Assembly (NCBI GenBank): GCA_937890925.1 | Contig: CALAEK010000064.1 | Location: 591 to 64,590, forward strand | Length of the DNA stretch: 64,000 nt | DNA from: an uncultured Riemerella sp. | Lineage (GTDB): Bacteria > Bacteroidota > Bacteroidia > Flavobacteriales > Weeksellaceae | Direction of reading: 5' to 3' | Shown here: one piece after another, positions 2,043-64,000 of the stretch | Layout: each line of letters starts with the position of its first letter | Numbering within the stretch: position 1 is the first letter of the stretch | The notes under the pieces: model-generated | The model's input: only the letters and a program-made list of their open reading frames with translations | Databases searched by the model: none | Told to the model about the DNA's origin: nothing | Translations under genes and position numbers: made by a program

Positions 2043-2058
2043 ATCTAAACTATAAGAA

Positions 2059-41660: not shown

Positions 41661-41690
41661 GAAAAAGCGGTTTTGTAATACAAACCGCTT
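41661..41690 (-). terminator. Minus-strand terminator upstream of the integrase start
   Basis: On the minus strand, AAGCGGTTTGTATTACAAAACCGCTT followed by T5. Confidence 0.5.
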
Positions 41691-43928: not shown

Positions 43929-43930
43929 AA

Positions 43931-44338: not shown

Positions 44339-44487
44339 AAAAATTTTGTTTCTGATAATCAGTTATTTATAATGATGTTCATATAATAAAGTATATAAAT
44401 CATATTATTTTATATAAAAAATTATATATTCGCAATATAAATATAGTTATATTTTAAATACAAATTAACAACAAATATATAAAAATT

Positions 44488-45322: not shown

Positions 45323-45324
45323 AA

Positions 45325-45609: not shown

Positions 45610-45614
45610 ATACT

Positions 45615-45884
45615 ATGGACATCAATCCTAATACTCAATTATTACACCTTACGGTGGCAGAATATATAGAGTTGCATAAGGTAGTAACTGGGCAAAAAAA
45701 AGAAATTAAAGAATATGTGTATGGATTGAAAGGCTTGGCAAAGATATTAGGCTGTTCAAGAACAACTGCTTCTAAAATTAAAAACTCTGGGATGATAGAT
45801 GATGCAATATCTCAAGTGGGAAAGTTAATCGTAATAGATAAGAAAAAAGTTCTTGAAATTATAGCAAAAGAGAATGAATTATGA
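45615..45884 (+). CDS. DUF3853-like HTH (excisionase-like) protein, paralog 2
   Basis: EYVYGLKGLAKILGCSRTTASKIKNSGMIDDAISQVGKLIVIDKKKVLEI. Tandem paralog of the previous gene. Confidence 0.6.
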   Translation: MDINPNTQLLHLTVAEYIELHKVVTGQKKEIKEYVYGLKGLAKILGCSRTTASKIKNSGMIDDAISQVGKLIVIDKKKVLEIIAKENEL

Positions 45885-46585
45885 ATTATACTGAATTAAC
45901 AACCAAATTTTGGTCTATAAATGAAAAATCTCCATTAGGAGCATCTGCTATTGCATTATATTTTTTTCTATTGGAAAAATGTAGACAAAATGATGGCAAA
46001 GATTTTACAATATCAGATAATGCAATAGGTCAAAAATTATCTTTAACTAGACCAACTATTAATGCTCTTAAATCAAAATTAAGAAATGTTGGTTTAATTC
46101 AGTATCAAACAAGAAATGGGGTACCAAGTATTTATAGAATAATAACTGATATTTCTTTCTTACTACAAGAATCACTCCAAAAAGAGACTTTAAATATTAA
46201 AAATAAAGTAAGTCAAGAATCAGAACCATTCAAAAAAATGATAGAAAGCCCTATTATAAATGACATTCAACCTAAAATATTAGAAGAAAAAACAATTCAT
46301 ACATCAACAAGAGAAAATATAAATATACCCTCATTAGATGAGTTTATGAATTTTGCTAAAAGTTTAGAAATTTATGATGAAACAATGGATTTTGCTATCA
46401 AATCAAAATATGAATCATGGAGAGACAATGGCTGGGTCAATGGACTTGGAATCCCTATAAATAAGTGGCAAAATAATTTAAAAAATACACTACCACATTT
46501 AAAAACCTCAAAAAAGAAACTTTCAGGACTTCAGCCAAATAACATTCCTACTATAAAACGCCCAAAACAAACTTACAATGAATAA
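45881..46585 (+). CDS. Replication organiser (DnaD-like winged-helix N-terminus)
   Basis: GASAIALYFFLLEKCRQNDGKDFTISDNAIGQKLSLTRPTINALKSKLRNVGLIQYQ. It overlaps the start of dnaB. Confidence 0.5.
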   Translation: MNYTELTTKFWSINEKSPLGASAIALYFFLLEKCRQNDGKDFTISDNAIGQKLSLTRPTINALKSKLRNVGLIQYQTRNGVPSIYRIITDISFLLQESLQKETLNIKNKVSQESEPFKKMIESPIINDIQPKILEEKTIHTSTRENINIPSLDEFMNFAKSLEIYDETMDFAIKSKYESWRDNGWVNGLGIPINKWQNNLKNTLPHLKTSKKKLSGLQPNNIPTIKRPKQTYNE

Positions 46586-47891
46586 CACAAATATTAAATT
46601 AGAAAAAGAAATTTTAGCTCATTTAATTCAAGAATCATCCTTGTTCGCTAACCATTATACCAAACTAAATCTTAATCTATTCACAACAAAAGAAAATAGA
46701 CTTATATACTCTGTTATTGCGGACTTATGGGAAAATGGTAAAGGAATAGATTTAATGATTGTAACATTAGAATTAAATAAGAGAGGGCATTCTCATTTAG
46801 ACCATTATGTTATAGACTTGATGACTAACTCTTTTTCTTCTGCAAACTTTGAATATCATTTAATGGTTTTGGTGGAACTATCTGTAAAAAGAGATTTTAT
46901 AGATAAGTTTTCAAAATTATTGAGGTTTGCTCAAGAACCCAATATGGATATATTTGATATTCGTGATAAAGCTTTTGAGTATTTTGATAATTTATTTTTA
47001 GACCAATTTATAGACAACAATAAGCAATATCAAAGCTTTTCAAGTCTTGTTCATAAAGCAGAAGAGAGATTTGACAATATCAATCTTAATGGGATTACAG
47101 GTATCCCAAGTTCATTAGGTATTATCAATAAAACAATGGGAGGTTGGCAAAATTCAGACCTTACTATTGTGGCAGGAAGACCTGGAATGGGAAAAACAGC
47201 ATTTTTAGTTCAGCAGGTAGTAGATTTAGCAATCCAAAATATGGCAGTAGGTATATTCTCATTGGAGATGTCTGCAGAACAAATTGCTGTGAGAATTATT
47301 ACAAATTATACCAAAATTCCAAACTCTTCAATATTGAGAAAAGGTCTGAAAGAAGATGAAAGAGAGCGGTATTATCACTATAAGGAAGACTTGACCAAAC
47401 TAAAAATACATATTGATGACACTCCATCAATATCTATTCAAGATTTAAAAGTCAAGGCTAAAATGATGAAATTGAAATATAATATAAAAGCCTTATTTGT
47501 TGATTATCTACAATTAGCAACTTATGAAAAATCACAAAATAGAGAGCAAGAAATCGCTAAAATTTCATCAGGATTAAAGGCTATTGCAAAAGAATTAGAT
47601 ATACCAGTAATCGCTCTCTCTCAACTTTCAAGAGCTGTAGAGAGCCGACCTAATAAACGCCCTCAATTATCCGATTTAAGAGAGTCTGGTTCAATAGAAC
47701 AGGATGCAGATGAAGTCATTTTCCTCTATCGTCCAGAATATTACAATATTGATGAATGGGATGATTACAATAATGCTCCTACAAAAAATGAGGTGGAAAT
47801 TATGATAGCTAAAAATAGAAATGGAGGATTATTAGATGAGAGATATAAAGTAAATATGGCGATTTCTGAATTTAGAAATATAGAATATTAA
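46578..47891 (+). CDS. dnaB: DnaB-family replicative helicase
   Basis: Walker A GRPGMGKTAF, DYLQL, and ALSQLSRAVESRPNKRPQLSDLRESGSIEQDADEVIFLYRPEYY. Confidence 0.9.
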   Translation: MNNTNIKLEKEILAHLIQESSLFANHYTKLNLNLFTTKENRLIYSVIADLWENGKGIDLMIVTLELNKRGHSHLDHYVIDLMTNSFSSANFEYHLMVLVELSVKRDFIDKFSKLLRFAQEPNMDIFDIRDKAFEYFDNLFLDQFIDNNKQYQSFSSLVHKAEERFDNINLNGITGIPSSLGIINKTMGGWQNSDLTIVAGRPGMGKTAFLVQQVVDLAIQNMAVGIFSLEMSAEQIAVRIITNYTKIPNSSILRKGLKEDERERYYHYKEDLTKLKIHIDDTPSISIQDLKVKAKMMKLKYNIKALFVDYLQLATYEKSQNREQEIAKISSGLKAIAKELDIPVIALSQLSRAVESRPNKRPQLSDLRESGSIEQDADEVIFLYRPEYYNIDEWDDYNNAPTKNEVEIMIAKNRNGGLLDERYKVNMAISEFRNIEY

Positions 47892-49141: not shown

Positions 49142-49837
49142 ATGAAGAAACTGGGTTTAATGCTACTGCTAATTTCTGGACTATCCAAAGGTCAGTATTT
49201 AGATAATTTAACCTATGGTCTGAAACTTGGTGCTCTGCATTCCCGTGTTACCAATCTTCCAGAGATGCTTATTGGTAGGGAAAACAATCGACAATTGTTT
49301 GATATTACAAGTAAGGGCGTTTTCGGAGTTGAAGGCGGTCTTTTTTTAAATTATAAACTTCCTGCTTCCAGAGTTGCTATTCAGCCGGAGCTATTATTTC
49401 GTTATTCAGGAGCAGAAGTAAATTACAACAACGAAACCACAGGCAGTAGTTACAAACTAGGGCTTAGGTATTCATATTTAATGCTTGGCGGAATTTATAA
49501 GGTATATCCTTTCTTAGGGTTAAATATAGGCATAGGAGCTTTCTATTCTAAAAATCTTACTCCACATGCAATAAGTTATAACTCCAATGAGCGTAATGGT
49601 CTCTATGATACCAATTTTCGCCAGTTCTATAGAGAAGGAATTGTGGGGAAGGATGATTTTAATTTGAGCTTTTCCTTAGGATATGAACTTGAGGATAATT
49701 TCCATTTTGATTTAAGATATTATCTTGGTGTGGGAGATATGATAGGAAATAGAGTGACTTCTTTTCAATTTTTGGAAAACACTAATCGTAACTCTTATCT
49801 AAGTCTCTCCGTAGGATATAGTTTTCATAATTGGTAA
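49142..49837 (+). CDS. Porin-family outer-membrane beta-barrel protein
   Basis: Signal peptide MKKLGLMLLLISGLSKGQ, alternating beta-strand pattern, and an aromatic C-terminus (YSFHNW). Confidence 0.7.
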   Translation: MKKLGLMLLLISGLSKGQYLDNLTYGLKLGALHSRVTNLPEMLIGRENNRQLFDITSKGVFGVEGGLFLNYKLPASRVAIQPELLFRYSGAEVNYNNETTGSSYKLGLRYSYLMLGGIYKVYPFLGLNIGIGAFYSKNLTPHAISYNSNERNGLYDTNFRQFYREGIVGKDDFNLSFSLGYELEDNFHFDLRYYLGVGDMIGNRVTSFQFLENTNRNSYLSLSVGYSFHNW

Positions 49838-49843
49838 AAAGAA

Positions 49844-50578
49844 ATGAAGAAAATAGGATTTTTGTTGTTGCTGATTTCTGCTTCAGCAGCATATGGACAG
49901 CGTTCAGAAAGAAGAATTACTTATGGTGTATTTGCAGGAGGAATGTATTCTAAAATCACCAACATTGAAAAGGTACTTATCCCTGATAATATGTATGCAG
50001 GTTATACCATAAAAGAACCCTATAAATTTGGCTATGGAGCAGGTGCTTTCTTAAACTGGTACTATCCTGAAGTGAGAATCAGTTTTCAGCCTGAACTCTA
50101 CTATTCCTACCAGCCTGGACAACTTGAATATACCGACACTAACGGATTAAACTATACCCTTAAATTTCCTTATCATAGCCTCAATGCAGGGTTTATGGTA
50201 AAGTTTTACTTTACAGAAGGTTTTTATGCAGGAGCAGGTCCTTATTTTAACTTTAATTTAGATAAAGATGTTTTGGAATACCGTTCCAACGGAGCAGAGA
50301 TGTCCAGAAAGTCGGGTGTTTATTTTGAGCCCGATGCTGTGGTACAGAATGTTTTAAAACAGTCATTGGAAGGTAAAGACTATTTCCATTTAGGTATGGG
50401 TATCGGTTATGAGTTTGATAATAAACTGAATATAGGCATCCGTTATCATTTGGGATTGTCAGACGCTTTGGAAACTCAGCAGAATGGACACCGCTACCGA
50501 GAGCAGAATAACATGGTCAATGCTTTTTTTCTCAATATCGGTTACCGCTTTACTTTTGACGGATACAATAACTTTTAA
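49844..50578 (+). CDS. Porin-family outer-membrane beta-barrel protein (tandem paralog)
   Basis: Signal peptide MKKIGFLLLLISASAAYGQ. Same architecture as the previous gene (GIRYHLGLSD / DLRYYLGVGD). Confidence 0.7.
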   Translation: MKKIGFLLLLISASAAYGQRSERRITYGVFAGGMYSKITNIEKVLIPDNMYAGYTIKEPYKFGYGAGAFLNWYYPEVRISFQPELYYSYQPGQLEYTDTNGLNYTLKFPYHSLNAGFMVKFYFTEGFYAGAGPYFNFNLDKDVLEYRSNGAEMSRKSGVYFEPDAVVQNVLKQSLEGKDYFHLGMGIGYEFDNKLNIGIRYHLGLSDALETQQNGHRYREQNNMVNAFFLNIGYRFTFDGYNNF

Positions 50579-50592
50579 AATATACGAAAAAT

Positions 50593-52575
50593 ATGAGGAA
50601 ACTTTATTTTTCACTAGGAGTTTTACTTTCCTTTTATAAGGTTTATGCACAAGAAAAATATCCTTCAGGAGTTCCCACTCCGATCTACTGGATAAAAACT
50701 GAAAAGGAAAAAGGAAAAACACAGGTAAAAGAAAAAATAAAAGGACAGGAAATTCATTTTGATAAAGCAGAAGGGCTTAGCATCAATGGAAATCCTGTTT
50801 TTTACATCAAAGAAGGAAAAACAATTTCTCTGCCTTTAGAAAAATCTGCAGCAGAACATTACTCACTTTTTGTAGTTTATAAAGGAGAAAAAAACGAAGG
50901 AGAATACCCCTTATGGTCTCTTTTAAATACATCTGCTGCTCAGTATAAACTAGTAGCGACCAACCGTCGTTTTGCTGATATGGAAAAAACTCTGTACAGC
51001 AGCTATCCGCAGGGAAATAGAGACAAGGTAAAAATTCATTATTACCAGCATTATAAAAATCTAGAGTCCAAGGAAAATAATACCCCAAATAAATCTTCTC
51101 AGTACGAACTTCATTTAGCAGGTAAAATAGCTCATCTGCCACTTGAAGAATTTTCTGGATATATTGGAGAAATATTACTTTATGACCGAGTGCTTTCCCC
51201 TATGGAAATGCAGCAGGTAGCATCTTATTTATCCATTAAATATGGTGTTTCTCTCAGCCAGACAGAATATAAAAATTACTATAACAGTAGAGGAGAGAAA
51301 ATATGGGATTATACTGAACATAAGGAATTTAATCAAAATATTACTGCTGTAGGAAAAGATAAAGAGGGAGAAATCTCCCAGATGGCCAGTAGAAATTCTA
51401 ATGATGAGCAGATGATTACGGTAGGGCTCACTGCAAAAAATGACAAGGAAATTCCAGATGGTTATTTTGTTTTCTGGAGTGATAATGGTAAAGAATTAGA
51501 ACTAAAAAAACAAAAAGAAGGTCAGCCCAGAGGACTCTCCAGAGTCTGGTTAATGGATTATCATAAACATTCTAATGTAGAACTGCATTGGAAGGCTGAC
51601 CCTAGAGTCCTGCCTCCTCTTTCAAGTGATGAAGAAGCAAAGTCTAGTGAGAAAAATGATTACTATTGGCTGGTCACAGATTCTTCTAAGGAGCGATTAT
51701 TTCATCCTACTTCAACAAAGTATCATAAATTAGGAAAAGTTTCCTCCCAAAAGCCATTGAGTTTTAATAATTGGGAAGATTCTGTCAATGGACAGACTGC
51801 TTATAGTATCTGGATGGCACCAGAGATGTTTTCTCATCTAGATATAGAAGCCTCCAAATGCAGGGAAAGTCTCTCTGGAAAAGTTAGATTTAATATTGTG
51901 GGTGGACAGGCTCCTTATCATGTAACCCTTCATAGAGAAGAAACTCCTTCCTATCAGCAAAGTATGAACTTAAGTTCTGAAGAACTTAATCAAAAGGCTC
52001 TGCGCCTTTCTTCAGGAAAGTATTTATACAACATTTCTGATGCTTATGGAAGGACTTACAAGGATAGCTTTTATCTCTCTGACGGAGATGCTCCGCTACC
52101 AAATCTCAATTCAGAATATATCATCGCTAAAAAACCACTGCTACTGTCTCCAGAAGAAAGCTTGCCTAAAGGGAGCTATGCCTATCAGTGGTACCAGAAC
52201 GGTCGTCTAGTTTCAGAAAACAAAAATTATCTCCTCAGCCAGGCAGGTGACTATGAGCTTAGAATCAAAAACGAGCATGGCTGTAAATCTGTTTCTAAAT
52301 TCAAGACTTATGTAGAAAATGAAATTGCGGACTCCCAGATTCTGCTCTATCCTAATCCTGCTCCAGGAGGAAAATTTACGCTTCAGGCAGCGTTCCCTAA
52401 AACTACCAGCGGACAGGTCAGCATTTATACCATGGAGGGAAGGCTCATGCAGTCACAGAATTTCTATAATCTATCTCAGTATGAATATCATGGAAATATT
52501 GGTGTTTCAGGGGTATATATCATCCAAATTAAAACACTATTGGGAGAAAACAGCTTAAAACTTATTGTTCATTAA
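50593..52575 (+). CDS. T9SS-sorted surface protein with a LamG-like domain and SprB-type repeat
   Basis: Signal peptide. LamG-type end motif GYIGEILLYDRVLSPMEMQQVASYLSIKYGV. SprB-like repeat CRESLSGKVRFNIVGGQAPYHVTL. T9SS C-terminal domain LLYPNPAPGGKFTLQ...GVYIIQIKT...LKLIV. Confidence 0.75.
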   Translation: MRKLYFSLGVLLSFYKVYAQEKYPSGVPTPIYWIKTEKEKGKTQVKEKIKGQEIHFDKAEGLSINGNPVFYIKEGKTISLPLEKSAAEHYSLFVVYKGEKNEGEYPLWSLLNTSAAQYKLVATNRRFADMEKTLYSSYPQGNRDKVKIHYYQHYKNLESKENNTPNKSSQYELHLAGKIAHLPLEEFSGYIGEILLYDRVLSPMEMQQVASYLSIKYGVSLSQTEYKNYYNSRGEKIWDYTEHKEFNQNITAVGKDKEGEISQMASRNSNDEQMITVGLTAKNDKEIPDGYFVFWSDNGKELELKKQKEGQPRGLSRVWLMDYHKHSNVELHWKADPRVLPPLSSDEEAKSSEKNDYYWLVTDSSKERLFHPTSTKYHKLGKVSSQKPLSFNNWEDSVNGQTAYSIWMAPEMFSHLDIEASKCRESLSGKVRFNIVGGQAPYHVTLHREETPSYQQSMNLSSEELNQKALRLSSGKYLYNISDAYGRTYKDSFYLSDGDAPLPNLNSEYIIAKKPLLLSPEESLPKGSYAYQWYQNGRLVSENKNYLLSQAGDYELRIKNEHGCKSVSKFKTYVENEIADSQILLYPNPAPGGKFTLQAAFPKTTSGQVSIYTMEGRLMQSQNFYNLSQYEYHGNIGVSGVYIIQIKTLLGENSLKLIVH

Positions 52576-52585
52576 TTGTATCAAC

Positions 52586-55500
52586 ATGAGAAAAAAATAC
52601 TTCTATAATCTATTTTTATTTTTAGGGATAAGTGCCAGCTTAGGAGCTGTAACCTATGTTTCAAGGCATTTAGACTTTTTCAGCACTAAAGAAATAGAAA
52701 ACAAAAATAAACCTGATACTACAGAAGAACATCCTAATTTATCTGGAAAGCTTCTTACTCCTTCCTCTGCAGCGGTCATCAGTCAGAAGGGATTTTGGGC
52801 TGAATTTCCAGAAAGAAGTGTTTCTAAGGCACTAAGGGTATCTGTTTCTGCCCTAAATAAAAGAAATCTTCCTGCTCTAGGAAGCAACATAATTAATCTA
52901 ACAAAAAATGCGGAGGGTTATCGTATGCGGCCTGGGGGAATTTTATTTGAAAAGGAAATTTCTATTGAAATTGCTTATGACAAAACTAAAATCCCAGAAG
53001 GATATACTGAAAAAGACATTTCCATTTTCTTCTACGACAGAGCTAAAAAGCTATGGCAGAAACTTCCGCAATCAGAAGTAAAATCTCATTTAGCAGAGAG
53101 TGTCAGCGGGAAAACTAAGGAATCTTCAGACTTTATTGCGGGAATTATCAAACTTCCTGAAAGTCCCGATACTTCAGGTTTTACTCCTACCAGCATCAGT
53201 GGGCTCAAAGCTGCAAGCCCTTTTGTTGGAGTACAGTCAGTTTCTCCACCTTCAGCAAGTCCAGACGGCTCGGCTTCAACCTCCTTTTCTATAGATCTTC
53301 CAGCTGGAAGAGCAGGTATGCAGCCAGGGCTGAGTATACAATACAGCAGTGATGGCGGTCAAAGCTGGCTGGGAACAGGATGGAATTTAACCCTTCCTTC
53401 TCTAAGTATTGATACCCGTTGGGGAGCACCTCGTTATGATGCTCAATATGAGACAGAATCTTATATTTTATCAGGAGAAGAACTTCTACCTAACACCCAC
53501 AGAAATGAGTGGGAAAACAGAACTACAAACAAGCGTTTTTACCCAAGAAGGGAAGGGAGCTTTAACCAAATCATTAGAAAAGGAAACCATCCTAATAATT
53601 ATCATTGGATGGTAAAATCTAAAAGTGGGGTTACTTTTTACTATGGGGGAGATGAAAACAGTATAGCTGCTTCTTCTGTGCTTGCAGATCCTCAGGGTAA
53701 TATAGGGCATTGGGCGATTTCTTCTCAGAAAGACCTGAAAGGAAACAGTATCCACTATGAATATGTAAAAGATGGCGGGGTACTCTACCCTAAAAGTATT
53801 TATTATACTGGAAAAAACAACACCAAAGGGGCTTACTCTGTACATTTTATTACAGACAAAGACTTGGGAGAAAACCTAAGAAATGATGTTCAAATTTCTG
53901 CAAGGCTTGGTTTTAAACAACAGCACGACAGGCTTCTTCGAAAAATAGAAATAAAGTACTCTGGACAAATGGTTCGCTCTTATGAGTTGGTCTACAGAGA
54001 GGGCGCCTTCAAAAAAACATTACTGAAAGAAATCCGCAGTTATGATGCCGAAGGACAGCTTTTCTATACTAACAAAATGGATTATTATGATGATGTCCAT
54101 GACAGTAATGGCAATTATATTCCTTTTGGAGCTTTTAAAACTTGGCAAGTTCCATCTGATAACATTGCCTATACTATTCTAGGAATAGATGGTTTTTCTG
54201 GTAAACCTACACTGGTGGGAACTTCCAACTCCGAGAGTGGAGGGGTAAACTTCCGAGTGGGAGTAGGAATTACAGGAATAGGCAGATTTAATAACAGTAC
54301 CTTAGGAGGCGGTGGAGGAAGCAACTGGGGAAGCACTCATTCTAAAGTTCTCTTTCAGGATATAGATGGAGATAACCTTCCTGATAAAATTTATATTGAT
54401 GGTAGCAGCGTTTACTATAGAAAAAACCTTACCGCTTTAGGAACAGAAGGTTTTGGTCCCAAAATTCCTATTAATCTCTCTAGTTTAGGAAGAACAAAAT
54501 CTAATTCCTATAATTTTGGAGTAGACTTAATGGTTAATCTTAACAATAAAGTAGGTTTTCCTATTGGTTATAACAAACAGGTATCTAAGAATATCACTGA
54601 GAGTTATTTCATGGACTTCAATGGAGATGGACTGGTAGATTTTGCCAATAGAGGGACGATATACTATAACCGTCTGGTAAATGGAATACCAACATTCTCA
54701 CCAAGTAGTACAGGTACACCTTCTCCTATTCTCAACACAGGAACCCTTAGCATCTCAGGAACCACGGGAATTACCCGAGAGGAATTGGAAAGAAACAATC
54801 CGCTTCATGATGTGGTAAGAACCTGGAAAGCTCCAGTGGCAGGAAGAATTTCCATTTCCCATACCTACAAATTGATAGAAGATTTATCTCCTAAAAGAGC
54901 TGAGTATACAAAAAATGATGGCACTCCAAAAGCAGATGGGGTAAAGCTTTATTTTCAGCATAAAGGAAATCTTGTTTGGCAGGAAGATATTACTGCTGAT
55001 GATTATGCCTTGAAATCCAAAACCGAAGAACTCAATGTACAGAAAGGAGATGTGCTTTACTTCAGAGTAAGCTCTAAGGAAGATGGAAACTATGATAAAA
55101 CTTTTTGGAAACCAGAGATTACTTATACTTCTCTTGCTGCAGCACAGGATGAAAACAGCCTTGATTTAAAGAAATATACCATAGAGGATATTCTCTTTTC
55201 TTCTGAGCAGATGTATGCTTTTCCAAGCGATACTCGTCCTACATTAAGAGGTAACTTTGTAAAAGGAGCTACTACAGATGGTATTAAATTAAAATTTTAT
55301 AAGATAGACCTTACTCATGGCAGTAAAACTCTTGTTCATGAGCAGTATTTCAGTGAAGCTGCTGCTACCTATGATTTGTCTTTAATCCCGCTGGGCAACT
55401 TCCAGCAGGCTGAAGCACTGAAAGTAGAAATAGAAAGTGAAACAGAAATTAACTGGAGAAATATAGACTTTAGACCTAGTATAGAATATGTAGACGGAGA

Positions 55501-58500
55501 GGGGAGAAATGTCAGCCATCCTATTAATGCTGACTTTAAAATTTATGAGAAGCTTGATAACTTCTATACTCCACGCTATATGATGCCTTCACAAAAAGGA
55601 AAGCTAAGGATTCATCTATATTCTGCTACTCCTCCTACTTCACCAACACCTGCTCCCGCTCCAGGAACCCCACCAACCAGTGGAGATATCCTTCTAACAG
55701 CAAAGCAGGAAGGAAAAGTAGTAGCGCGTAAACGCTACAAGGTAGTGAATGGGATACTAAGTCTGAATCCAAAACCTTCTGATATAGTATCTGATTCTGT
55801 GGTATTAGGAAAAGAAGTTTTTCTAGAAGCCAATGTTTCCAATAAAAAAATGAAAGAATTCCTTGATGACCATCATTTTGAAATTAAAGCTCAAATTAAG
55901 GATTCTATAAGACTGGCGAAGACAGACCCTCGATATACTCCTACTCATCGTCATCATATTGCTACCTCCATTCAGCAACATAGAGATTATGGGGTTTATA
56001 TTCCTTTTGAGGAACCTCATAGTGAAGTAAAATTTGGTAAAACCTTCAGAGGATGGGGAAGTTTTGTGCTTAATGGAACTAAAGCTTCTAGTACCATAGA
56101 CCAAAGTCTGCTGGTAGAGAACTATGGAAATTATGACAGCTCTAACCCTCCTAATGTAGATCCTAGTCAGCATGATGGAAGTATTGCCCGTCCAGAAATG
56201 GAGGCTTCTAATCATTATTTCATTAGAACAAAAGGGAATACTCCTATTTCAAGATTTACAGGATTAGAAGATGATATTTATATCAGCAGAGAGGAGTTTT
56301 CTCCTTCCAGATTAGGGGAAAATGATATTATTCAGTATTTAGACACTTCACTTCCTGTGCTTTCAGGAGGTAGTGGTAGAGCCTTAAATATGGTTAATGA
56401 AGGGCGTAGTGAGGTCTTCTCTATAGGAGCAAATTTCGGAGGGGGAAGTGTAGGAATTGGTGGTTCCAGAGGTTCTGGGGATACCTATATCAAAGAGACC
56501 ATGGCGGATTTCAATGGTGACCGTTTCCCAGATTTTGTCCGTGGAGGCTTTGTGCAGTATACCACCCCGAGAGGAGGCATCTCAGCTCAAGCTGCAGAAA
56601 TAGGAGACTTCACTCATTCTAAAACCTCTAACCAAGGAGGCTCTATCAATGGAACCTATGCCCATCCTTTAGCTAAATCGTCTGCATCTAAAAATACAGA
56701 GAAATCTACCCAACAGCAGCAAAATACTGCTACCCAAGGAGCACAAGATGCTGATAAGGCAAAAGCAACACTGGGACTCAGCGGAGGCATCTCTTCTGGA
56801 GAAGACCATGCAGAGCATACCTATACCGATATTAATGGAGACGGGCTGGCAGACAGAGTAACGAGTAGTTATGTTTCCTACAATACGGGATATGGCTTCT
56901 GGAGTCCAGAACCTTGGAATTTTGGAGAACTCAATAAAGGAGAAAGTACAGATACCAGTGGAGGTCCAAGTCTTGGTTTTTCAAGACAATCAGGATCCTT
57001 TACTGGAGGATACAGCTACGGAAAATCTATCACTGATATGAAAACCCAGCTGCTGGATATGACTGGTGATGGACTGGCAGATAAAGTAATCTACCAAGAC
57101 CATGGAACTCTTGTTTATCCTAACCTTGGAAACCGATGGGATACCACTCCTCTGTTCATTCCTAGAACAGCTGGAAGACCTGTAGGAAGAAATGTCTCCA
57201 TAAGTCATGGAGGGGGTGTGAATATTTCTATTGACCCGCCACCTATACTATTTATCCGTCTCAGTTTTAAAGGAGGCGGTTCCTATGGAACCAATACTAA
57301 CCGTGTAGAGGCTACTTTCCTTGATGTAGATGGTGATGGCAACTTAGATTATGTACTCTCTGAAGATGAAAATGACCTGAGAGTAGCCTATTCTAATATC
57401 CGCAGAACCAATATGCTGAAGAGGGTAGAAACAGCAACAGGAAGCTGGTTTGAAATAGATTATGAGCGTAAAATGCCAACTTATGAAAACCCTAACAGCC
57501 AATGGGTACTCAAAGAAGTAAAGGTATTTGATGGCTATACTGGTGATGGAGAAGATTACGCTATCTCAAGATTTGAATACAACAAACCTTACTATGACCG
57601 AAGAGAGCGCAGTTTCTATGGTTATGGTGAGGTAAAGCAGATGCAGATCAATCCACAAGATGGTACAGTGCTGAGAACCAGTGTTCAGGAATATTACAAT
57701 GAAGACTTTTTTAGAAAATCTCAGCTTAAGAAAAGTACAACCTTTGATAAAAATGGAGCGAAACTCAGCGAAAGCAGTGTAACTTACCATATCGCAGATG
57801 CACAAAGCGGGGCGGTAATCCCATCAAACCAACTTTCTCTTCCGCAGATGGATACAAAATCTGTATTCATAGCACCAAAAGAGGAGAGAGAACGAGTATA
57901 TGAGCAGAGCGACTACCTAGAAAAGAAAACGGAGAAACACTATGACCGAGTAGGAAATATCGTCAAGTACATAGACCATGGAGCAGGAAAACCTTCTGAT
58001 AAGATAGAAGCTGATATCCGCTATTATGAAAGTGCAACCCCTTACTTCGGGGGTATTGCCCAAAGTATCATCGTAAAAGATGCTAATGGAGAGGTAAGAA
58101 AACGGGAAGCAGACATCCACCCGCAGACTGCAGAAGTCATCAAAATACGCCAGTTCTCTGGAGTAGGAATCTATACAGAGACACAGCTTTCTTATGATGA
58201 ATACGGCAACCTGGTACAGGTAACTGGTGCAGAGAATGAGAAAGGACAACGCTCACAGCTCAGCTATCAGTACAACCCTGAAACTCACAGCCATATTACC
58301 AAGATTAAAGATCATTTTGGGTATGAAAATACCATGGAGTATGACTACCGCTTTGGAGCACCAGTAAAAACTACTGACCGAAACGGGGAAAGTATGCTCT
58401 ATACGCTGGATGCCAAGGGAAGAACCATCAGTATCTTAGGACCTAAAGAAGCCAAAGCTGGAAAACCCTACACCATCCGCTATGAGTATCCGAACCTTAA

Positions 58501-60757
58501 TCAGCCCCGCCCTGCTGGACAGCTGCCTTATGCACTGACCAGAAACTATGACCCTGAACATAACCGAGATATAGAAACCTATACCTATGCCGACGGGCTG
58601 GGAAGAGCGGTGCAGGTGAAAAAGACCGCAAGTATCTTCAGGGGAAGAGGACTTGCTGATGAAGAAAAACACATCATCTCTGGAAAACAGATATATGATG
58701 CCTTAGGCAGGGTAGTAGAGACCTATTATCCATTCACTGTATCGGTGCAGAGCCAGCTGGTGCCCGCACCAAGCAGCAGCATATCACCTACTAAAACCCT
58801 CTATGATGAGAAAGACCGACCAGTAGAGCAGATTCTGCCTGATGGTTCCAGCGTGAAAACGGCCTATAAAATCACCCACCACAAGGGAGAAAATACCCTG
58901 CACACCACACAGACAGATGCGCTCAATAGACAAAGCCATACCTATACCGATGCGCAGGGAAGAGTGCTGACCCAAGTGCAGCCTGACGGCACAGAGACCC
59001 ATTTTGAATACAGTGCCATAGGAGAGCTTACCAAGGTAACTGATGCACAGGGACACCAGACCCTGAGCGAGTATGACCTCTTAGGAAGAAGAACCAAATT
59101 AGTACATCCTGATGCAGGAACGACTATTTTAGTCTATGACAAGGCAGGAAATCTCATCAAGAGACAAACCAGCCAGATACGCGGAGAAATGCCTGATGGC
59201 TACATCACCTACCACTATGACTACAACCGCCTGCAGGAGATAAAATACCCGAAATACCCTGAAAACAGTGTCCGCTACCACTATGGAGCACAAAGTGAGC
59301 AGGCAGGAAGAAGAGGAAGACTCTGGCTGGTAGAAGATGCGAGTGGAGGAACTGAATACTTCTACGGAGATATGGGCGAGGTAACTAAGGAAATCCGAAG
59401 TCTGCGTATAAAGCCCGTAGAAGTGCAGACCTATGTGACCCAGTATGAATACGACAGCTGGAACCGTATCCAAAAGCTGGTTTATCCTGATGGAGAAAGA
59501 CTGGACTTTGGGTATAATATAGCAGGGAACTTAACGAGCCTGAAAGGCTATAAAGCTCCCGAAGGCACAGCACCAAGTGAGGAGCATGCCTACACCTACC
59601 TGAAACAGCAGGGCTATGATGAGTTTGAGCAGAAAGTATACCGTCTCTACGGAAACGATACCGAGACCCGCTACCACTACGACCCTGTGATGAGACGCCT
59701 TGAACATCTCAAGGCCGAAAGTCTTACTCCAGCAGGAGGCGGGGGAAATTTCCTTATCCAGAACAACCGTTATGCGTATGATTTGGTAGGGAACATCCTC
59801 AAGGTGGAGAACCAGCTCCCGATTATCCGCAATGCACTGGGCGGGGCATCCAGCTATGAATATCAGTATGATAATCTCAACCGGCTGACCCACGCCAAAG
59901 GAAACTACACCGGAGAGCTTACCAGTGCCAGCTATGAGCTGAAAATGAGTTATAATAATCTTAACTCCATCACAAAGAAAGAGCTAAACCACCTCTCCGG
60001 AGGGGTGCAGAAGGGCTATACGCTGGACTACAGCTACAACAACCCTGCCCACCCTCACGCCCCGAGTGAAATCATGGAGATGGGTAAACCTAAAGCCCGA
60101 ACTTACCAGTATGACGGCAACGGTAACCCTGTCTACTACGAGGAATCCAAGAGTTTCCGCTCGATGGTCTGGGACGAGGAAAACAGGCTGAGAGGCATTA
60201 ACGATAATGGAAAACTGCATCTCTACACCTACGACCACACGGGCGAAAGAGCGGTGAAAAGCAGCGGGGAGAGCAGTACGGTGGTGACCAACGGGCTGAC
60301 ATCGGCGGTCATCACCCATATGGACGACTATACCGCCTATGTAAACCCTTATTTCGTGGTGCAGAAAGGGAAATTTACCAAGCATTATTTTGAGGGTTCG
60401 GCAAGGATAGTGAGCAAGCTGGGTGAAGGAACCTTTGTGCATAAAAACACGGGCATCATGGCGGGAGGAATAGACTACATCCGCCAGAGTGCCCAAATGC
60501 AGGAGGCAAGAGACAGGTATATTAAAGGGTCTCTGACCCCGCCAGGTCCGCCGACACAGCATGGCATTTATGCTTCGCCTGAATGGACAGGACAGCCTTA
60601 CTTGGATGGCAAAACCAATAAACCAAGTGAATTTAATAGGTTAATAGTCTTAAAAATAACACTATCACTAATAAAAAAGGGGTTGAGTTCTGGTAAATTA
60701 GTTGTATTTTTGTGTTGTGGTATAGTTTCTTTTGTATTTTTAATACTCCAAAAGTAA
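52586..60757 (+). CDS. Giant SpvB/TcdB-N - FG-GAP(VCBS) - RHS/YD-repeat protein, apparently truncated at the 3' end
   Basis: The ATG at 52586 (MRKKYFYN..., signal-anchor helix) is preferred over 52565. SpvB motif SIDLPAGRAGMQPGLSIQYSSDGGQSWLGTGWNLTLPSLSIDTRWGAPRY. At least 6 FG-GAP-like DxDGDGxxD loops. Many YD repeats (YDxxGNL, DAxGRxxxxxYD). The sequence stops after ...FTKHYFEGSARIVSKLG... without the terminal YYHxDHLGS...PFGE core or a toxin tip. The last roughly 45 codons are AT-rich and hydrophobic. Confidence 0.85.
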   Translation: MRKKYFYNLFLFLGISASLGAVTYVSRHLDFFSTKEIENKNKPDTTEEHPNLSGKLLTPSSAAVISQKGFWAEFPERSVSKALRVSVSALNKRNLPALGSNIINLTKNAEGYRMRPGGILFEKEISIEIAYDKTKIPEGYTEKDISIFFYDRAKKLWQKLPQSEVKSHLAESVSGKTKESSDFIAGIIKLPESPDTSGFTPTSISGLKAASPFVGVQSVSPPSASPDGSASTSFSIDLPAGRAGMQPGLSIQYSSDGGQSWLGTGWNLTLPSLSIDTRWGAPRYDAQYETESYILSGEELLPNTHRNEWENRTTNKRFYPRREGSFNQIIRKGNHPNNYHWMVKSKSGVTFYYGGDENSIAASSVLADPQGNIGHWAISSQKDLKGNSIHYEYVKDGGVLYPKSIYYTGKNNTKGAYSVHFITDKDLGENLRNDVQISARLGFKQQHDRLLRKIEIKYSGQMVRSYELVYREGAFKKTLLKEIRSYDAEGQLFYTNKMDYYDDVHDSNGNYIPFGAFKTWQVPSDNIAYTILGIDGFSGKPTLVGTSNSESGGVNFRVGVGITGIGRFNNSTLGGGGGSNWGSTHSKVLFQDIDGDNLPDKIYIDGSSVYYRKNLTALGTEGFGPKIPINLSSLGRTKSNSYNFGVDLMVNLNNKVGFPIGYNKQVSKNITESYFMDFNGDGLVDFANRGTIYYNRLVNGIPTFSPSSTGTPSPILNTGTLSISGTTGITREELERNNPLHDVVRTWKAPVAGRISISHTYKLIEDLSPKRAEYTKNDGTPKADGVKLYFQHKGNLVWQEDITADDYALKSKTEELNVQKGDVLYFRVSSKEDGNYDKTFWKPEITYTSLAAAQDENSLDLKKYTIEDILFSSEQMYAFPSDTRPTLRGNFVKGATTDGIKLKFYKIDLTHGSKTLVHEQYFSEAAATYDLSLIPLGNFQQAEALKVEIESETEINWRNIDFRPSIEYVDGEGRNVSHPINADFKIYEKLDNFYTPRYMMPSQKGKLRIHLYSATPPTSPTPAPAPGTPPTSGDILLTAKQEGKVVARKRYKVVNGILSLNPKPSDIVSDSVVLGKEVFLEANVSNKKMKEFLDDHHFEIKAQIKDSIRLAKTDPRYTPTHRHHIATSIQQHRDYGVYIPFEEPHSEVKFGKTFRGWGSFVLNGTKASSTIDQSLLVENYGNYDSSNPPNVDPSQHDGSIARPEMEASNHYFIRTKGNTPISRFTGLEDDIYISREEFSPSRLGENDIIQYLDTSLPVLSGGSGRALNMVNEGRSEVFSIGANFGGGSVGIGGSRGSGDTYIKETMADFNGDRFPDFVRGGFVQYTTPRGGISAQAAEIGDFTHSKTSNQGGSINGTYAHPLAKSSASKNTEKSTQQQQNTATQGAQDADKAKATLGLSGGISSGEDHAEHTYTDINGDGLADRVTSSYVSYNTGYGFWSPEPWNFGELNKGESTDTSGGPSLGFSRQSGSFTGGYSYGKSITDMKTQLLDMTGDGLADKVIYQDHGTLVYPNLGNRWDTTPLFIPRTAGRPVGRNVSISHGGGVNISIDPPPILFIRLSFKGGGSYGTNTNRVEATFLDVDGDGNLDYVLSEDENDLRVAYSNIRRTNMLKRVETATGSWFEIDYERKMPTYENPNSQWVLKEVKVFDGYTGDGEDYAISRFEYNKPYYDRRERSFYGYGEVKQMQINPQDGTVLRTSVQEYYNEDFFRKSQLKKSTTFDKNGAKLSESSVTYHIADAQSGAVIPSNQLSLPQMDTKSVFIAPKEERERVYEQSDYLEKKTEKHYDRVGNIVKYIDHGAGKPSDKIEADIRYYESATPYFGGIAQSIIVKDANGEVRKREADIHPQTAEVIKIRQFSGVGIYTETQLSYDEYGNLVQVTGAENEKGQRSQLSYQYNPETHSHITKIKDHFGYENTMEYDYRFGAPVKTTDRNGESMLYTLDAKGRTISILGPKEAKAGKPYTIRYEYPNLNQPRPAGQLPYALTRNYDPEHNRDIETYTYADGLGRAVQVKKTASIFRGRGLADEEKHIISGKQIYDALGRVVETYYPFTVSVQSQLVPAPSSSISPTKTLYDEKDRPVEQILPDGSSVKTAYKITHHKGENTLHTTQTDALNRQSHTYTDAQGRVLTQVQPDGTETHFEYSAIGELTKVTDAQGHQTLSEYDLLGRRTKLVHPDAGTTILVYDKAGNLIKRQTSQIRGEMPDGYITYHYDYNRLQEIKYPKYPENSVRYHYGAQSEQAGRRGRLWLVEDASGGTEYFYGDMGEVTKEIRSLRIKPVEVQTYVTQYEYDSWNRIQKLVYPDGERLDFGYNIAGNLTSLKGYKAPEGTAPSEEHAYTYLKQQGYDEFEQKVYRLYGNDTETRYHYDPVMRRLEHLKAESLTPAGGGGNFLIQNNRYAYDLVGNILKVENQLPIIRNALGGASSYEYQYDNLNRLTHAKGNYTGELTSASYELKMSYNNLNSITKKELNHLSGGVQKGYTLDYSYNNPAHPHAPSEIMEMGKPKARTYQYDGNGNPVYYEESKSFRSMVWDEENRLRGINDNGKLHLYTYDHTGERAVKSSGESSTVVTNGLTSAVITHMDDYTAYVNPYFVVQKGKFTKHYFEGSARIVSKLGEGTFVHKNTGIMAGGIDYIRQSAQMQEARDRYIKGSLTPPGPPTQHGIYASPEWTGQPYLDGKTNKPSEFNRLIVLKITLSLIKKGLSSGKLVVFLCCGIVSFVFLILQK

Positions 60758-60845
60758 TGATTTTCAATGTGTTTTTCTAATAAACTATGCTATTTTTTTA
60801 GATAAAACAGCAAGTTATTTACTTGCAAAACTTAAGTTTCTATTT

Positions 60846-61673
60846 ATGACCAAACAAGAAAAATTAATAGGTATTCATCCAAATAATACAGATCCTTTTG
60901 GGAAATGGCTTAAAGTAAATGATCTACCCGATTCTGCTACAAAATGTCATAGAGAACTAACAGAATCTACTGTTATAGATAACGATTTAATCGAATGGAT
61001 AGCAAGAAAAATTATCAATCATCACTACACTCAATTTAGGATAGATAGACTAAAACAAAAATATGAAAGTTTAGGCTATGCAGAATATGCTGCGCAACAT
61101 AGAAAACTGCCAATTGAAGACAAAGTAAAAAAAGGTAATGCAACTGAAATTCTTTTGACTGATTATATCCAGACAACACGAGGAAAGGAATTTATCAAAG
61201 TTTTCAAGTTAAGATATAATCCAAACGTTGATCAAGCGATAAAAGGAGATGACACATTGATGGTTGACTTATTTGAAGAAAACGGGAATGAAAAAATAAA
61301 AATATATTTAGGGGAATCTAAATTCCGAAAAGCGCCATCAAAGAAGGTTGTCGAAGATATTGCTAATTCTCTGAGTAAAGACACCTTACCTTTATCATAT
61401 ACTTTTCTAGTAGAAGAAATTGCAAAAACGGATGAAATACTTGCAGAAAAATTAGATGATTACATTGTACAGGACGTAAAAGATAGAGGTGATTTGATTT
61501 ATGCAGGATTGCTGTTGAGCAATACCGATACTTCAAGAACTGTCGAAAGGCATCTGAATAGTGATAACTCTAACTTAGTATTCATTTCAGTTGGCATTGA
61601 TAATCCAGAAAGATTTATTGAATCCGTATTTGAAAGAGCAGAAGAACTAATTGCTAATCCTGATTTGCTATGA
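60846..61673 (+). CDS. hamA: HamA-like (DUF1837-type) PD-(D/E)xK effector of a Hachiman-type system
   Basis: 275 aa with D...ExK signature IKGDDTLMVDL ... IYLGESKFRK. Its stop overlaps the start of a DExH helicase gene (ATGA). Size and pairing fit HamA. Family assignment comes from architecture, not from a database search. Confidence 0.6.
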   Translation: MTKQEKLIGIHPNNTDPFGKWLKVNDLPDSATKCHRELTESTVIDNDLIEWIARKIINHHYTQFRIDRLKQKYESLGYAEYAAQHRKLPIEDKVKKGNATEILLTDYIQTTRGKEFIKVFKLRYNPNVDQAIKGDDTLMVDLFEENGNEKIKIYLGESKFRKAPSKKVVEDIANSLSKDTLPLSYTFLVEEIAKTDEILAEKLDDYIVQDVKDRGDLIYAGLLLSNTDTSRTVERHLNSDNSNLVFISVGIDNPERFIESVFERAEELIANPDLL

Positions 61674-64000
61674 ATATAGAACATATTGAAGAAAGTTATC
61701 GGGCATTAGAATCAGATTCTACTCTACAAAATTTGATTGCCCAAGCTAATGCAAGATATATCCTTTATAATACAAGGGAATCCCAACAGAATTTCCCTCG
61801 ATATACGATTAAGGATGAACAACTAAATATTCTTGCGTTCAAATATCTGAATATTGGCTGTAACTATTTTGAACATCACGACTATACAAAAGCTGCGAGC
61901 TCTTTAGAAAAAGGAGCTTTAGTACTTGAATACATACATGGATCGATTAATACCGAGACAAAGAACAAGAGTTTATTTTGTCTGATTTCTGCGCTTGCTT
62001 ATTATGTTTGTTTTCAGTATTCAAAGTCATTTATACTTATACGCAAATCTCAAAGCGACACAGTAATAGCCTCATTGATATCTCTATTTCTCAATAGAGA
62101 ATTCAAACAATTGCAAAAGAATATAGATCGAATTATTACAGATCCTACCTATAGTGATAAATATTTGGCTGAAGATTTTAAGGAAGATAATGCTAAGAAA
62201 GTCTATGAAATTACAATTGCAAAAGCAATAAATAATTATGTCCAATTCTATCACACAGGGGATAATACATTTTTAGAGACAGCAAAACGAAATCTTACTA
62301 ATCTTCAAGAAATAGCTGAGATAAGGAGAGAACCCGATATTTGGTGGGTAATTCGACTGTTACTTCTCATCATAGATGGTTTTAGAGAATCTTCGTTATG
62401 GCATGTATTAGGACATTATTTCAATATCAAACATAAATTTCCTTTAAAGTATATACAATCATTAGTATATAAAGATCGTAGCATCACAGAGCTATTCCTT
62501 ACTCAAAGGAACTCCTTACCTAAAGTTTTAAACAGAGAGCAAAATGGAAGTATTATCAGTATCCCAACAAGTAGTGGCAAAACAAGAATTGGTGAAATTG
62601 CAATTTTGAACTGCTTGTCAAATAATCCTGATGCAAAAATTCTTTTCATTGCCCCTTTCAGATCGTTAGCCTATGAAATAGAAAATTCACTTGATGAAAT
62701 TTTTAATAATCTTGATATTTCAGTTTCACATTTGTATGGGGGTAGTCTATTCAGTAAACTTGATGAAAAAGTCATAGAAGAATCCTCTGTAATTGTAGTA
62801 ACACCAGAAAAAGCTAAAGCTCTATTAAGAAGTAATACAGATATACTTTCGAGCATTAAGTTGGTAATTGTAGATGAAGGACATTTACTTGGAGCAAACA
62901 AAAGACTTATCGTAAATGAAATGTTTTATGAAGAACTGAGATACCATGTTAGTGTTAATGGTGGTAAATTTTTGCTTTTATCCGCTGTTTTACCAAATGC
63001 AGAAGATTTATCTGAATGGCTTACCGGTTCTTCCGATAATGTGTATAAAGAAAACTGGCGACCTTCTGATGAAAGAATTGGAATAATGGAGTGGAATGGG
63101 AGGGCTGTTAACTTAAAATGGAAAAGTAATGATACAGAAAGAAATTCGTTTAACCCTAATTTTATTGTACAACAAGAATTACCCAAGAAGCCGCGACAAA
63201 GAAAAACTTATTATTTTCCAGAAAGCAAGAACCAAGCTATTGCTGCTACTGCATACAAACTAAGAGATTTTGGCCCCGTCTTGATATTTGTTGGCAAAAA
63301 AGAATCCGTATTTACTATAGCAAGAGAATATGAAGAATGTATTGAGACTGAAGATGATAAATTTAGGTTTAAAAACGAAGCCAATTGGGAAGCTTTCCAA
63401 TTGGCCTGTGTCGAATCTTATGGAAAAGATTCTGAATGGCTCAGATTTGCAAAAATGGGGATTTTTTGTCATAATGCAGACCTACTTTCAGATGTTCGAC
63501 TTCCATTAGAACGACTAATGAGAAGTGAAAAACCCAGAGTAATTATTGCAACCTCAACATTGGGGCAGGGGGTCAATCTTGGTGTGTCTACTGTCATTTT
63601 TTCTACTTTGTATCAGGGGAAGACACTAATTACCAAAAGAGATTTTTGGAATATTGCAGGTAGAGCTGGCCGTGCGTTTGTAGATCATGAAGGGAAGATT
63701 TTAGTTGCACTTGACATTACGGGAAAGGATCATAATAAAATTAGATGGAAGAGAAATCTCATTTCAGAATACTTAAATAAAGATAATATTGATGCTGCAA
63801 GAAGCGGCTGTTTGAGGTTAATAAGAGTATTAAAAAACATATCACTATCAAATGGGTTGTCATTTGACACACTTATTAACTTACTTGCAGAAAACCGTAT
63901 TGATGAGATTCACGAACAATCAGATGAGATTGATGCTCTTCTTGATTGGATTGATGACGGCTTATTATCACTACATAATTCTAATAACCCCGAAGGGAAT
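61670..64000 (+). CDS. hamB: HamB-like SF2 DExH helicase (partial; open to the window end)
   Basis: Not in the ORF track because no stop is reached. Manual translation gives 777 sense codons. Motif I IPTSSGKTRIGE, II LVIVDEGHLL, III LLSAVLPN, V VIIATSTLGQGVNLG, VI WNIAGRAGRAFVDHEG. A roughly 290-aa non-helicase region precedes the core. Confidence 0.75.
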   Translation, partial: MNIEHIEESYRALESDSTLQNLIAQANARYILYNTRESQQNFPRYTIKDEQLNILAFKYLNIGCNYFEHHDYTKAASSLEKGALVLEYIHGSINTETKNKSLFCLISALAYYVCFQYSKSFILIRKSQSDTVIASLISLFLNREFKQLQKNIDRIITDPTYSDKYLAEDFKEDNAKKVYEITIAKAINNYVQFYHTGDNTFLETAKRNLTNLQEIAEIRREPDIWWVIRLLLLIIDGFRESSLWHVLGHYFNIKHKFPLKYIQSLVYKDRSITELFLTQRNSLPKVLNREQNGSIISIPTSSGKTRIGEIAILNCLSNNPDAKILFIAPFRSLAYEIENSLDEIFNNLDISVSHLYGGSLFSKLDEKVIEESSVIVVTPEKAKALLRSNTDILSSIKLVIVDEGHLLGANKRLIVNEMFYEELRYHVSVNGGKFLLLSAVLPNAEDLSEWLTGSSDNVYKENWRPSDERIGIMEWNGRAVNLKWKSNDTERNSFNPNFIVQQELPKKPRQRKTYYFPESKNQAIAATAYKLRDFGPVLIFVGKKESVFTIAREYEECIETEDDKFRFKNEANWEAFQLACVESYGKDSEWLRFAKMGIFCHNADLLSDVRLPLERLMRSEKPRVIIATSTLGQGVNLGVSTVIFSTLYQGKTLITKRDFWNIAGRAGRAFVDHEGKILVALDITGKDHNKIRWKRNLISEYLNKDNIDAARSGCLRLIRVLKNISLSNGLSFDTLINLLAENRIDEIHEQSDEIDALLDWIDDGLLSLHNSNNPEGN

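Follow-up and report, generated by a model that had tools for sequence, protein, structure and literature searches.

Background

The two-gene Hachiman system HamAB of Escherichia coli ECOR31 has been described structurally in the PDB entries 8VX9, 8VXA, 8VXC and 8VXY (Tuck et al., Cell 2024, PMC12278908), the last of which holds the nuclease-dead complex with HamA E138A/K140A. Mutating HamA E138/K140 or HamB D431 abolishes defence in that system, and HamB has been placed among the Ski2-like helicases (PMC12278908). In the type III-B Hachiman of Streptococcus thermophilus, defence is abolished by mutation of the HamA motifs G-(D)-x-x-E, D and E-x-K and of HamB motifs I, II and V, and an OB-like HamB fold has been reported only for type III-A (PMC13064477). 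Hachiman genes occur as cargo of integrative and conjugative elements (ICEs) in Elizabethkingia anophelis, a member of the Weeksellaceae (PMC13019914), and Hachiman has been predicted in Tenacibaculum (PMC10013915). Here we describe a hamA-hamB pair in a 64,000-nt stretch of DNA assigned to an uncultured Riemerella sp. (assembly GCA_937890925.1, contig CALAEK010000064.1, positions 591 to 64,590), which is referred to below as the window. From window position 60846 onward, directly behind a truncated rhs gene, the sequence is read as a complete Hachiman system of two genes, PADLOC type I (HamA1 + HamB1), with a probability that we put at about 0.95. This is an already-known kind of system that standard annotation tools pick up, and the pair is an ordinary member of a subfamily that has been modelled and annotated before. 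Its value lies in the finding of one Hachiman module at 96% identity in different genomic contexts of human-oral metagenomes, with distant copies on conjugative elements.

Results and discussion

Identity of the HamA-HamB pair

An initial annotation, made from the letters of the window alone, had read the two open reading frames (ORFs) as a Hachiman-type HamA + HamB pair. It had named two outcomes that would speak against this: a 275-aa protein lacking DUF1837/HamA similarity, or a helicase that groups with restriction (HsdR/Res) or repair (Lhr/Ski2) enzymes and has the matching partners downstream. On either count the result spoke for Hachiman. The 275-aa product matches the Pfam family HamA (PF08878, formerly DUF1837) at 51.3 bits, the gathering score being 25, and the PADLOC HamA1 model PDLC00155 at E 1.5e-95 (317.9 bits), with residues 1-271 aligned to positions 1-273 of 276. 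The only significant sequence matches among solved structures are to HamA of the ECOR31 complex (8VX9_A; E 4e-6 for the sequence alone, 5.3e-10 when a family profile was used). An AlphaFold2 model of the protein, built on 26 homologues (pLDDT 83.2, pTM 0.85), was compared with the PDB using Foldseek, and the top three matches were all nuclease-subunit chains of Hachiman systems: 8vx9_A, the best (E 5e-8, TM 0.66/0.69), followed by 8vxy_A and, only third, 8zue_A (TM 0.43). The matches that came next, to the restriction nucleases MspJI and AspBHI, were weak.

The PD-(D/E)xK-like signature that had been pointed out earlier (GDD...ESK) is present as G134-D135-D136 and G156-E157-S158-K159. Residues G97, E101, D136, E157 and K159 are invariant in alignments of 17 and of 26 homologues; E157 and K159 align with E138 and K140 of ECOR31 HamA, and in S. 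thermophilus HamA the positions corresponding to the invariant residues are essential (PMC13064477).

The frame behind hamA was said to stay open for 777 codons to the edge of the window, and translation agrees. The exact HamA sequence was looked up and found on eight metagenome contigs. Contig L003 covers window 60459-64000 at 100% identity and reaches 1147 nt beyond it, while contig L001 covers window 50849-64000 at 99.2% identity and reaches 1637 nt beyond; both extend the ORF to 1118 aa, recovering the HamB C-terminus that the initial annotation had proposed to seek by extension of the contig. A HamB of 1118 aa was also found on L083 and L087, two further contigs that carry copies of the pair (see below). 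The full protein used for profile searches was taken from L003. The PADLOC HamB1 model PDLC00192 scores 1109 bits on the window fragment and 1449.7 bits on the full protein, with residues 1-1117 aligned to positions 1-1103 of 1104. The type I models fit both HamA and the completed HamB end to end.

The complete set of helicase motifs that had been reported was found in place (SAV at residue 438, TSTLGQGVN at 628, and SGKT, DEGH and GRAGR as in Table 1), comprising motifs I, II (DEGH), III, V and VI, all intact, and D402 of the DEGH motif aligns with D431 of ECOR31. Pfam identifies DEAD, ResIII and Helicase_C domains. Among solved structures the best match is HamB itself (8vx9_B, E 1.3e-61, residues 183-1029 against 210-1085). 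The runners-up, Slh1, ASCC3, Brr2 and Hel308, match the RecA core only and are about 20 orders of magnitude weaker; their identity fits the published Ski2-like placement of HamB.

The generic ResIII and DEAD domains, the many Ski2/Brr2/Hel308 structures that match the RecA core, and sub-threshold NCBIfam matches to Hel308-type and ligase-associated DEXH helicases could be taken to mean that the helicase is a restriction (HsdR/Res-type) or repair (Lhr/Hel308/Ski2-type) enzyme, with the small protein an unrelated nuclease. However, the repair-helicase matches are confined to the RecA core (residues ~266-690), where no NCBIfam Hel308-type model exceeds 124 bits, the cut-offs being 887-1216, whereas HamB1 covers residues 1-1117 at 1450 bits and the HamB structure leads the next one by the margin given above. 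The partner is a bona fide HamA, and no methyltransferase, specificity subunit or repair partner was found in the module or in the following 5 kb. Based upon these profile scores and the lack of partner genes, the restriction or repair reading was rejected, and we consider its probability close to nil.

A second possibility is that the pair belongs to a neighbouring nuclease-helicase family, namely PDC-M23, Shango SngC, AbpAB with its Cap4-fused AbpA, or the three-gene Hachiman type II. PADLOC does return secondary matches to such models (PDC-M23B at 226 bits, HamB2 at 106 bits, SngC at 101 bits and HamA2 at ~20 bits), but these scores lie 6-14 times below that of HamB1 and concern the helicase core only. 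HamA has 275 aa without an N-terminal Cap4-like fusion, HamC is absent, and the ATPase_2/DUF234 gene that lies downstream of hamB is not shared by other copies of the module. Assignment to one of these families appears extremely improbable, and Hachiman type I remains the preferred assignment.

Gene organization, selection and points of doubt

The two genes are adjacent on the same strand. The TGA stop of hamA (61671-61673) overlaps the ATG of hamB (61670-61672), as in the ATGA overlap at 61670-61673 that had been noted before, and because of this 4-nt overlap the genes are probably co-expressed. The part of the locus that is common to different genomic contexts contains these two genes only. 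No third gene, no HamC and nothing else related to Hachiman was seen 3' of hamB on the metagenome contigs that complete it; beyond the hamB stop, an AT-rich non-coding stretch of ~490 nt leads to the start of the ATPase_2/DUF234 gene. The pair had been described as hidden from the mechanical ORF list. This holds for the helicase ORF, omitted only because it runs off the end of the window, but not for the 275-aa ORF, which is listed.

Relative to the homologous genes of L087, whose products are 85-89% identical, dN/dS (the ratio of nonsynonymous to synonymous substitution rates) is 0.08 for hamA and 0.14 for hamB, indicating purifying selection, and neither gene has internal stops. Against relatives overall, dN/dS ranges from 0.08 to 0.19. 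The Hachiman protein sequences are identical across independent samples.

Several points weigh against the reading of the pair as a working Hachiman system. Residue N98 of HamA replaces the aspartate of the G-D-x-x-E motif found in the E. coli and S. thermophilus proteins, and D90A in S. thermophilus HamA abolishes defence (PMC13064477). The putative NAH-type, HamA-binding N-terminal region of HamB (~290 residues) has matches to sequence profiles only: alignments with PDLC00192 and PDLC00174 begin at residues 1-3, whereas the phmmer alignment with ECOR31 HamB starts only at residue 183. Phage protection, formation of a HamA-HamB complex and a damage-sensing trigger in the uncultured host are properties that we infer from a distant homologue, ECOR31 HamA being only ~20% identical in the structural alignment. 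Finally, S. thermophilus HamAB, in which HamA requires the complex for its activity and shows a loose CNNNG preference (PMC13064477), suggests that the details of activation may differ between Hachiman subtypes.

With regard to N98, the residue is kept in the whole HamA clade, including copies on conjugative elements, and this conservation argues for a clade-specific trait and not decay. The same residue, at a position that is essential in S. thermophilus HamA, together with the location of the cassette at a rearranged junction beside a truncated gene, would be expected if the cassette were a decaying, non-functional passenger of the rearrangement that also destroyed rhs. Against this, both ORFs are full length relative to their family profiles, the catalytic and helicase motifs are all intact, identical proteins recur in independent samples, dN/dS against relatives is 0.08-0.19, and N98 is clade-wide. 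We regard decay as very unlikely.

Proposed mechanism

By analogy with ECOR31 HamAB (PMC12278908), HamA and HamB would form a 1:1 heterodimer in which HamB keeps HamA inactive during scanning of intact double-stranded DNA. Phage infection would produce damaged DNA or free ends, upon which HamB would load and hydrolyse ATP, and the ATP-driven remodelling would then activate HamA for indiscriminate DNA degradation. The infected cell would be cleared of DNA, phage replication would fail and the infection would be aborted. The window pair itself displays intact domains, motifs and gene coupling; the remaining mechanism we infer from ECOR31. The activation step is the least secure part of this scheme, since S. 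thermophilus HamAB differs in activation.

Truncation of the rhs gene

The DNA upstream of the pair encodes a TcB/TcC-like Rhs protein (Table 1), and window 50000-60614 matches six related metagenome-assembled genomes (MAGs), L007-L012, at 95.6-98% DNA identity. Beyond 60614 (60601 in the case of L010) the sequences are unrelated. The Rhs ORF of these six genomes has 3075-3100 aa and runs ~390 codons past the break, through the conserved end of the core (YFYHPDHLGSS...YYGARYYDP...DPL) and into a variable toxin tip. Immunity-like ORFs follow the tip in the sister loci, and orphan tip/immunity cassettes are also present in three of them. The window ORF, in contrast, has 2730 aa, breaks from its homologues at codon 2684 and stops after 46 unrelated codons, a read-through tail, most of which falls within the leader of the Hachiman cassette. 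The window protein lacks the conserved core end and the C-terminal toxin domain, with its immunity gene, of an intact Rhs/YD-repeat polymorphic toxin. The truncation that the initial annotation had proposed is borne out by these comparisons, and the Hachiman module has replaced the 3' end of a genuinely truncated rhs gene. Its arrival deprived the host of the toxin end of the gene.

An assembly chimera at the rhs/Hachiman junction was considered and ruled out, as L001-L004 and L006, five metagenome assemblies independent of one another, all contain the junction. An inversion was considered as well: a tblastn search of Rhs tips and orphan cassettes against contigs L091 and L092, covering ~5 kb downstream, did not recover the missing 3' part of rhs from the opposite strand. 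As a separate observation, position 55698 of the window, in rhs, is joined directly to the left module end (window 60647) in contig L092 (ODST01000205.1), a second junction ~5 kb deeper in rhs; L092 9742-10533 corresponds to window 54907-55698. This second junction may represent either another deletion variant or an assembly error.

The rhs gene forms part of a conserved block (window 49142-60757) that encodes two outer-membrane protein (OMP) beta-barrel proteins, a 660-aa protein with a sorting domain of the type IX secretion system (T9SS), and the SpvB/TcdB_midN/RHS protein. The order of the block (OMPs, T9SS protein, Rhs) is kept in Bergeyella and Riemerella. The block suggests a T9SS-linked Rhs toxin locus.

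A mobile module in different contexts

The module begins at window 60630, ends 23 nt after the stop codon of hamB (~4.42 kb in all) and consists of a 216-nt leader, hamA and hamB. It is 95.9% identical to contigs L083-L086, which derive from other samples and differ in their flanks. L084 is recorded as a human oral metagenome; in L083 the module is followed by a single-stranded DNA-binding protein gene and a PRTRC gene set (ThiF, E2, Prok_Ub), and in L086 it is preceded by an integrase fragment. More distant copies are located within conjugative transposons. In L087, part of a 4.6-Mb genome and with a HamA of 89% identity, the pair sits between a type IV secretion system (T4SS) coupling protein gene and genes for a relaxase, MobC, ParA and TraG, and in L088 (IMGVR_UViG_3300008722_000389; HamA 81%) it adjoins TraM, DUF4138 (TraN-like), TraO and TraQ genes (969-4559). 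A KilAC/Bro-N antirepressor gene was also observed beside the Tra genes of L088. Carriage by phages was considered, given that three IMG/VR 'viral' contigs hold an 81% identical HamA, but the one examined (L088) is a Bacteroidota conjugative transposon by its TraM, TraN-like, TraO and TraQ genes, and this candidate explanation was rejected. The prophage-like region of the window ends ~19 kb before the cassette, and no link between the two was seen.

Judged by its copies, the HamAB pair behaves as a compact cargo module of Bacteroidota mobile elements which, in the lineage of the window, has either inserted into the rhs end or recombined with it. Inspection of the module ends by eye, with no dedicated repeat search, showed neither inverted nor direct terminal repeats, and no transposase was found there. 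The leader is presumed to contain the native promoter and holds one candidate for a Bacteroidota-type -7 box, a motif that is not enriched in the window (67 occurrences against 79 expected); a scan for sigma-70 promoters was not above shuffled expectation (30 vs 25.7).

Base composition had been used in the initial annotation to argue for a recent insertion, on the basis of a cassette of about 30% GC abutting DNA of 50-57% GC. The contrast is real but smaller than claimed: the cassette (60615-64000) has 32.5% GC, ranging from 24.5 to 40.5% in 200-nt windows, and the last 2 kb of rhs have 49.7%, with a 200-nt maximum of 54%. It is weak evidence of an insertion, for the outlier is the rhs core, with its high GC, rather than the cassette. 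The window as a whole averages 36.9% GC and the 12 kb before rhs have 30.8%, so that only the rhs core is GC-rich and the contrast was rejected as proof of insertion. Since it mainly reflects the rhs core, the contrast holds little information on how recently the cassette arrived. Mobility is better supported by the comparative break at 60614 and by the same module in other contexts.

The rhs 3' flank as a variable region

Among sister strains, the region downstream of rhs contains orphan tip arrays, a second Hachiman subtype (L011, L012) or the module of the window; sister strains consequently carry different Hachiman systems in the same flank. A speculative and rather unlikely extension of this finding is that the rhs 3' flank is a recombination hotspot that swaps whole defence cassettes by the same type of exchange as Rhs toxin-tip replacement. 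If a recombinase and a repeat that occur in this flank (see below) did drive the exchange, the flank would represent an integron-like capture system common to toxin tips and anti-phage genes.

The second Hachiman subtype follows an intact rhs and a 91-aa ORF, at L011 13381-16301 and L012 14106-14506. Its HamA has 280 aa (PDLC00166, 427 bits) and shares just 22% identity with that of the window, and its HamB has 693 aa (PDLC00180, 802 bits).

Orphan rhs-tip/immunity cassettes, including those of Bergeyella cardium, are separated by a conserved repeat of ~60 nt with the core AACACATCTGGAACATTACC. No copy of it occurs in the window, and its role might be that of a recombination site or of a shared promoter. 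A 181-nt version lies inverted beside a serine recombinase gene downstream of the Hachiman genes in L091, a related but more divergent contig (88-90% identical to the window) that contains many frameshifts and has the look of an error-prone assembly. On L092, the position of the ATPase gene is occupied by one for an OMP beta-barrel protein. A large minus-strand helicase ORF (>920-1089 aa) borders the orphan rhs array at L007 17645-20413 and L009 19054-22323; it gives weak PADLOC matches to BrxHII, DrmD and PbeA and may belong to another defence or mobile-element module.

Host lineage and other elements in the window

In order to place the host, species-representative genomes were scanned with the last 830 residues of the rhs ORF. 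The closest matches, at 98-99% protein identity, are to uncultured human-oral Flavobacteriaceae and Riemerella MAGs (L007-L012 and L016), while the rhs products of cultured Bergeyella and Riemerella are ~66% identical and those of Flavobacterium ~55%. The Flavobacteriia-like host assumed at the outset agrees with these values, and the host is an uncultured oral Flavobacteriaceae/Riemerella-like bacterium.

Elsewhere in the window, a prophage-like block of same-strand ORFs extends over ~5900-41800. No tRNA was found in the 64,000 nt. Between this prophage and rhs, the region 42046-47891 possibly represents a second, small mobile element. Coordinates of the features are collected in Table 1.

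Table 1. Features of the Hachiman locus, its surroundings and related contigs (window coordinates unless a contig is named)
Feature	Position	Strand	Remarks
hamA, DUF1837 effector nuclease	60846..61673	+	275 aa, ATG start; Pfam, PADLOC, PDB, AlphaFold2
HamA predicted active site	D136 61251-61253; E157 61314-61316; K159 61320-61322	+	from alignment; plus conserved G97, E101
hamB, superfamily 2 (SF2) Ski2-like sensor helicase, first 777 of 1118 codons	61670..64000	+	start overlaps hamA stop by 4 nt
HamB motif I, SGKT	62573-62584	+	from translation, residue 302
HamB motif II, DEGH	62873-62884	+	from translation, residue 402
HamB motif VI, GRAGR	63659-63673	+	from translation, residue 664
Module leader, 216 nt, presumed native promoter	60630..60845	+	homology with L083-L086 starts at L001 9785 = window 60630
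Candidate Bacteroidota-type -7 box, TATTTTTG	60705-60712	+	TAnnTTTG match; motif not enriched window-wide
TcB/TcC-like Rhs (YD-repeat) toxin gene, conserved part	52565..60614	+	truncated at codon 2684; Pfam SpvB, TcdB_toxin_midN, RHS_repeat
Read-through tail of truncated rhs ORF	60615..60757	+	46 unrelated low-GC codons + stop; no homology to Rhs homologues past 60614
660-aa protein with T9SS C-terminal sorting domain	50593-52575		end overlaps rhs start (52565)
N6/N4 DNA methylase	13425-14765		prophage-like block
Terminase large subunit, phrog_2	16115-17653		prophage-like block
GDSL lipase-domain protein	21956-23710		prophage-like block
Tail tape-measure	31501-35616		prophage-like block
Integrase	40415-41764	-	prophage-like block
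Second tyrosine integrase	42046-43302	-	
AntA antirepressor	44726-45322		
DnaB-type replicative helicase	46578-47891		
~60-nt repeat copies	L007 13264-13329, 16287-16353, 17376-17553; L009 13935-14002, 15517-15574, 18785-18962		
~60-nt repeat copies	L010 19116-19175; L013 20787-20852; L077; L091 6214-6392		L091 copy inverted
Small serine recombinase (Resolvase + HTH_7, 191 aa)	L092 110-685; L091 ~5749-6130	- (L092); + (L091)	downstream of cassette
ATPase_2/DUF234 gene	L091 ~3470-4551		downstream of cassette, followed by the serine recombinase

Comparison with known systems

The window pair is unlike Hachiman type II (HamA2/HamB2/HamC): it has no third gene, and the type II models score at most 21 bits (HamA2) and 107 bits (HamB2) against 318 and 1450 bits for type I. 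It also differs from AbpAB, the Hachiman variant of E. coli K-12. AbpA carries a Cap4-like endonuclease at its N-terminus, fused to a HamA-like domain without catalytic activity, whereas the 275-aa HamA is DUF1837 alone, with its active-site residues present.

In common with the type III-B Hachiman of S. thermophilus (PMC13064477), the pair conserves the HamA motifs G-(D)-x-x-E, D and E-x-K and HamB motifs I, II and V. The two differ in that the window pair has neither a PezAT nor an AbiJ partner, has N for D in the first HamA motif, and possesses a much longer HamB, which aligns up to residue 1085 of 1174 of ECOR31 HamB.

Resemblance to ECOR31 extends to the two-gene hamA-hamB arrangement, the DUF1837 fold (TM 0.66/0.69), the equivalence of E157/K159 with E138/K140, a DEGH motif in register (D402 = D431) and the size of HamB (1118 aa here vs 1174 aa). 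The pair departs from ECOR31 in its low identity (~20% for HamA in the structural alignment), in the first ~180 HamB residues, which phmmer leaves unaligned, in having N98 where ECOR31 HamA has an aspartate, and in the phylum of its host, Bacteroidota as opposed to Proteobacteria.

The initial annotation knew of no characterised Hachiman from a Flavobacteriia-like host. With respect to experiments this stands, as no experimentally characterised Flavobacteriia Hachiman was found in the literature searched, and the pair would be a convenient native Hachiman for the experimental characterisation of such an example. In other respects it does not, because homologues already carry the name HamA and Hachiman has been reported on Elizabethkingia ICEs. 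A homologue of Bacteroides intestinalis with 87% identity is named 'Hachiman antiphage defense system protein HamA' by NCBI, those of Flavobacterium sp. LM4 and Psychroserpens sp. (64-68% identity) are NCBI-named HamA, and DUF1837 proteins of Prevotella MAGs are 86-89% identical to the window HamA. The Elizabethkingia anophelis case (PMC13019914) concerns the same or a neighbouring host family and presents Hachiman as accessory cargo of Bacteroidota ICEs, as in L087 and L088; compared with such ICE-borne copies, the window module is not visibly inside an ICE and abuts a truncated chromosomal rhs gene. The Bacteroidota HamA/HamB relatives belong to the same PDLC00155/PDLC00192 subfamily, with 275-276 aa and the same invariant residues. 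Only the genomic context sets the window pair apart from those already annotated, the closest of which lie in Bacteroidia or on conjugative transposons and not beside rhs.

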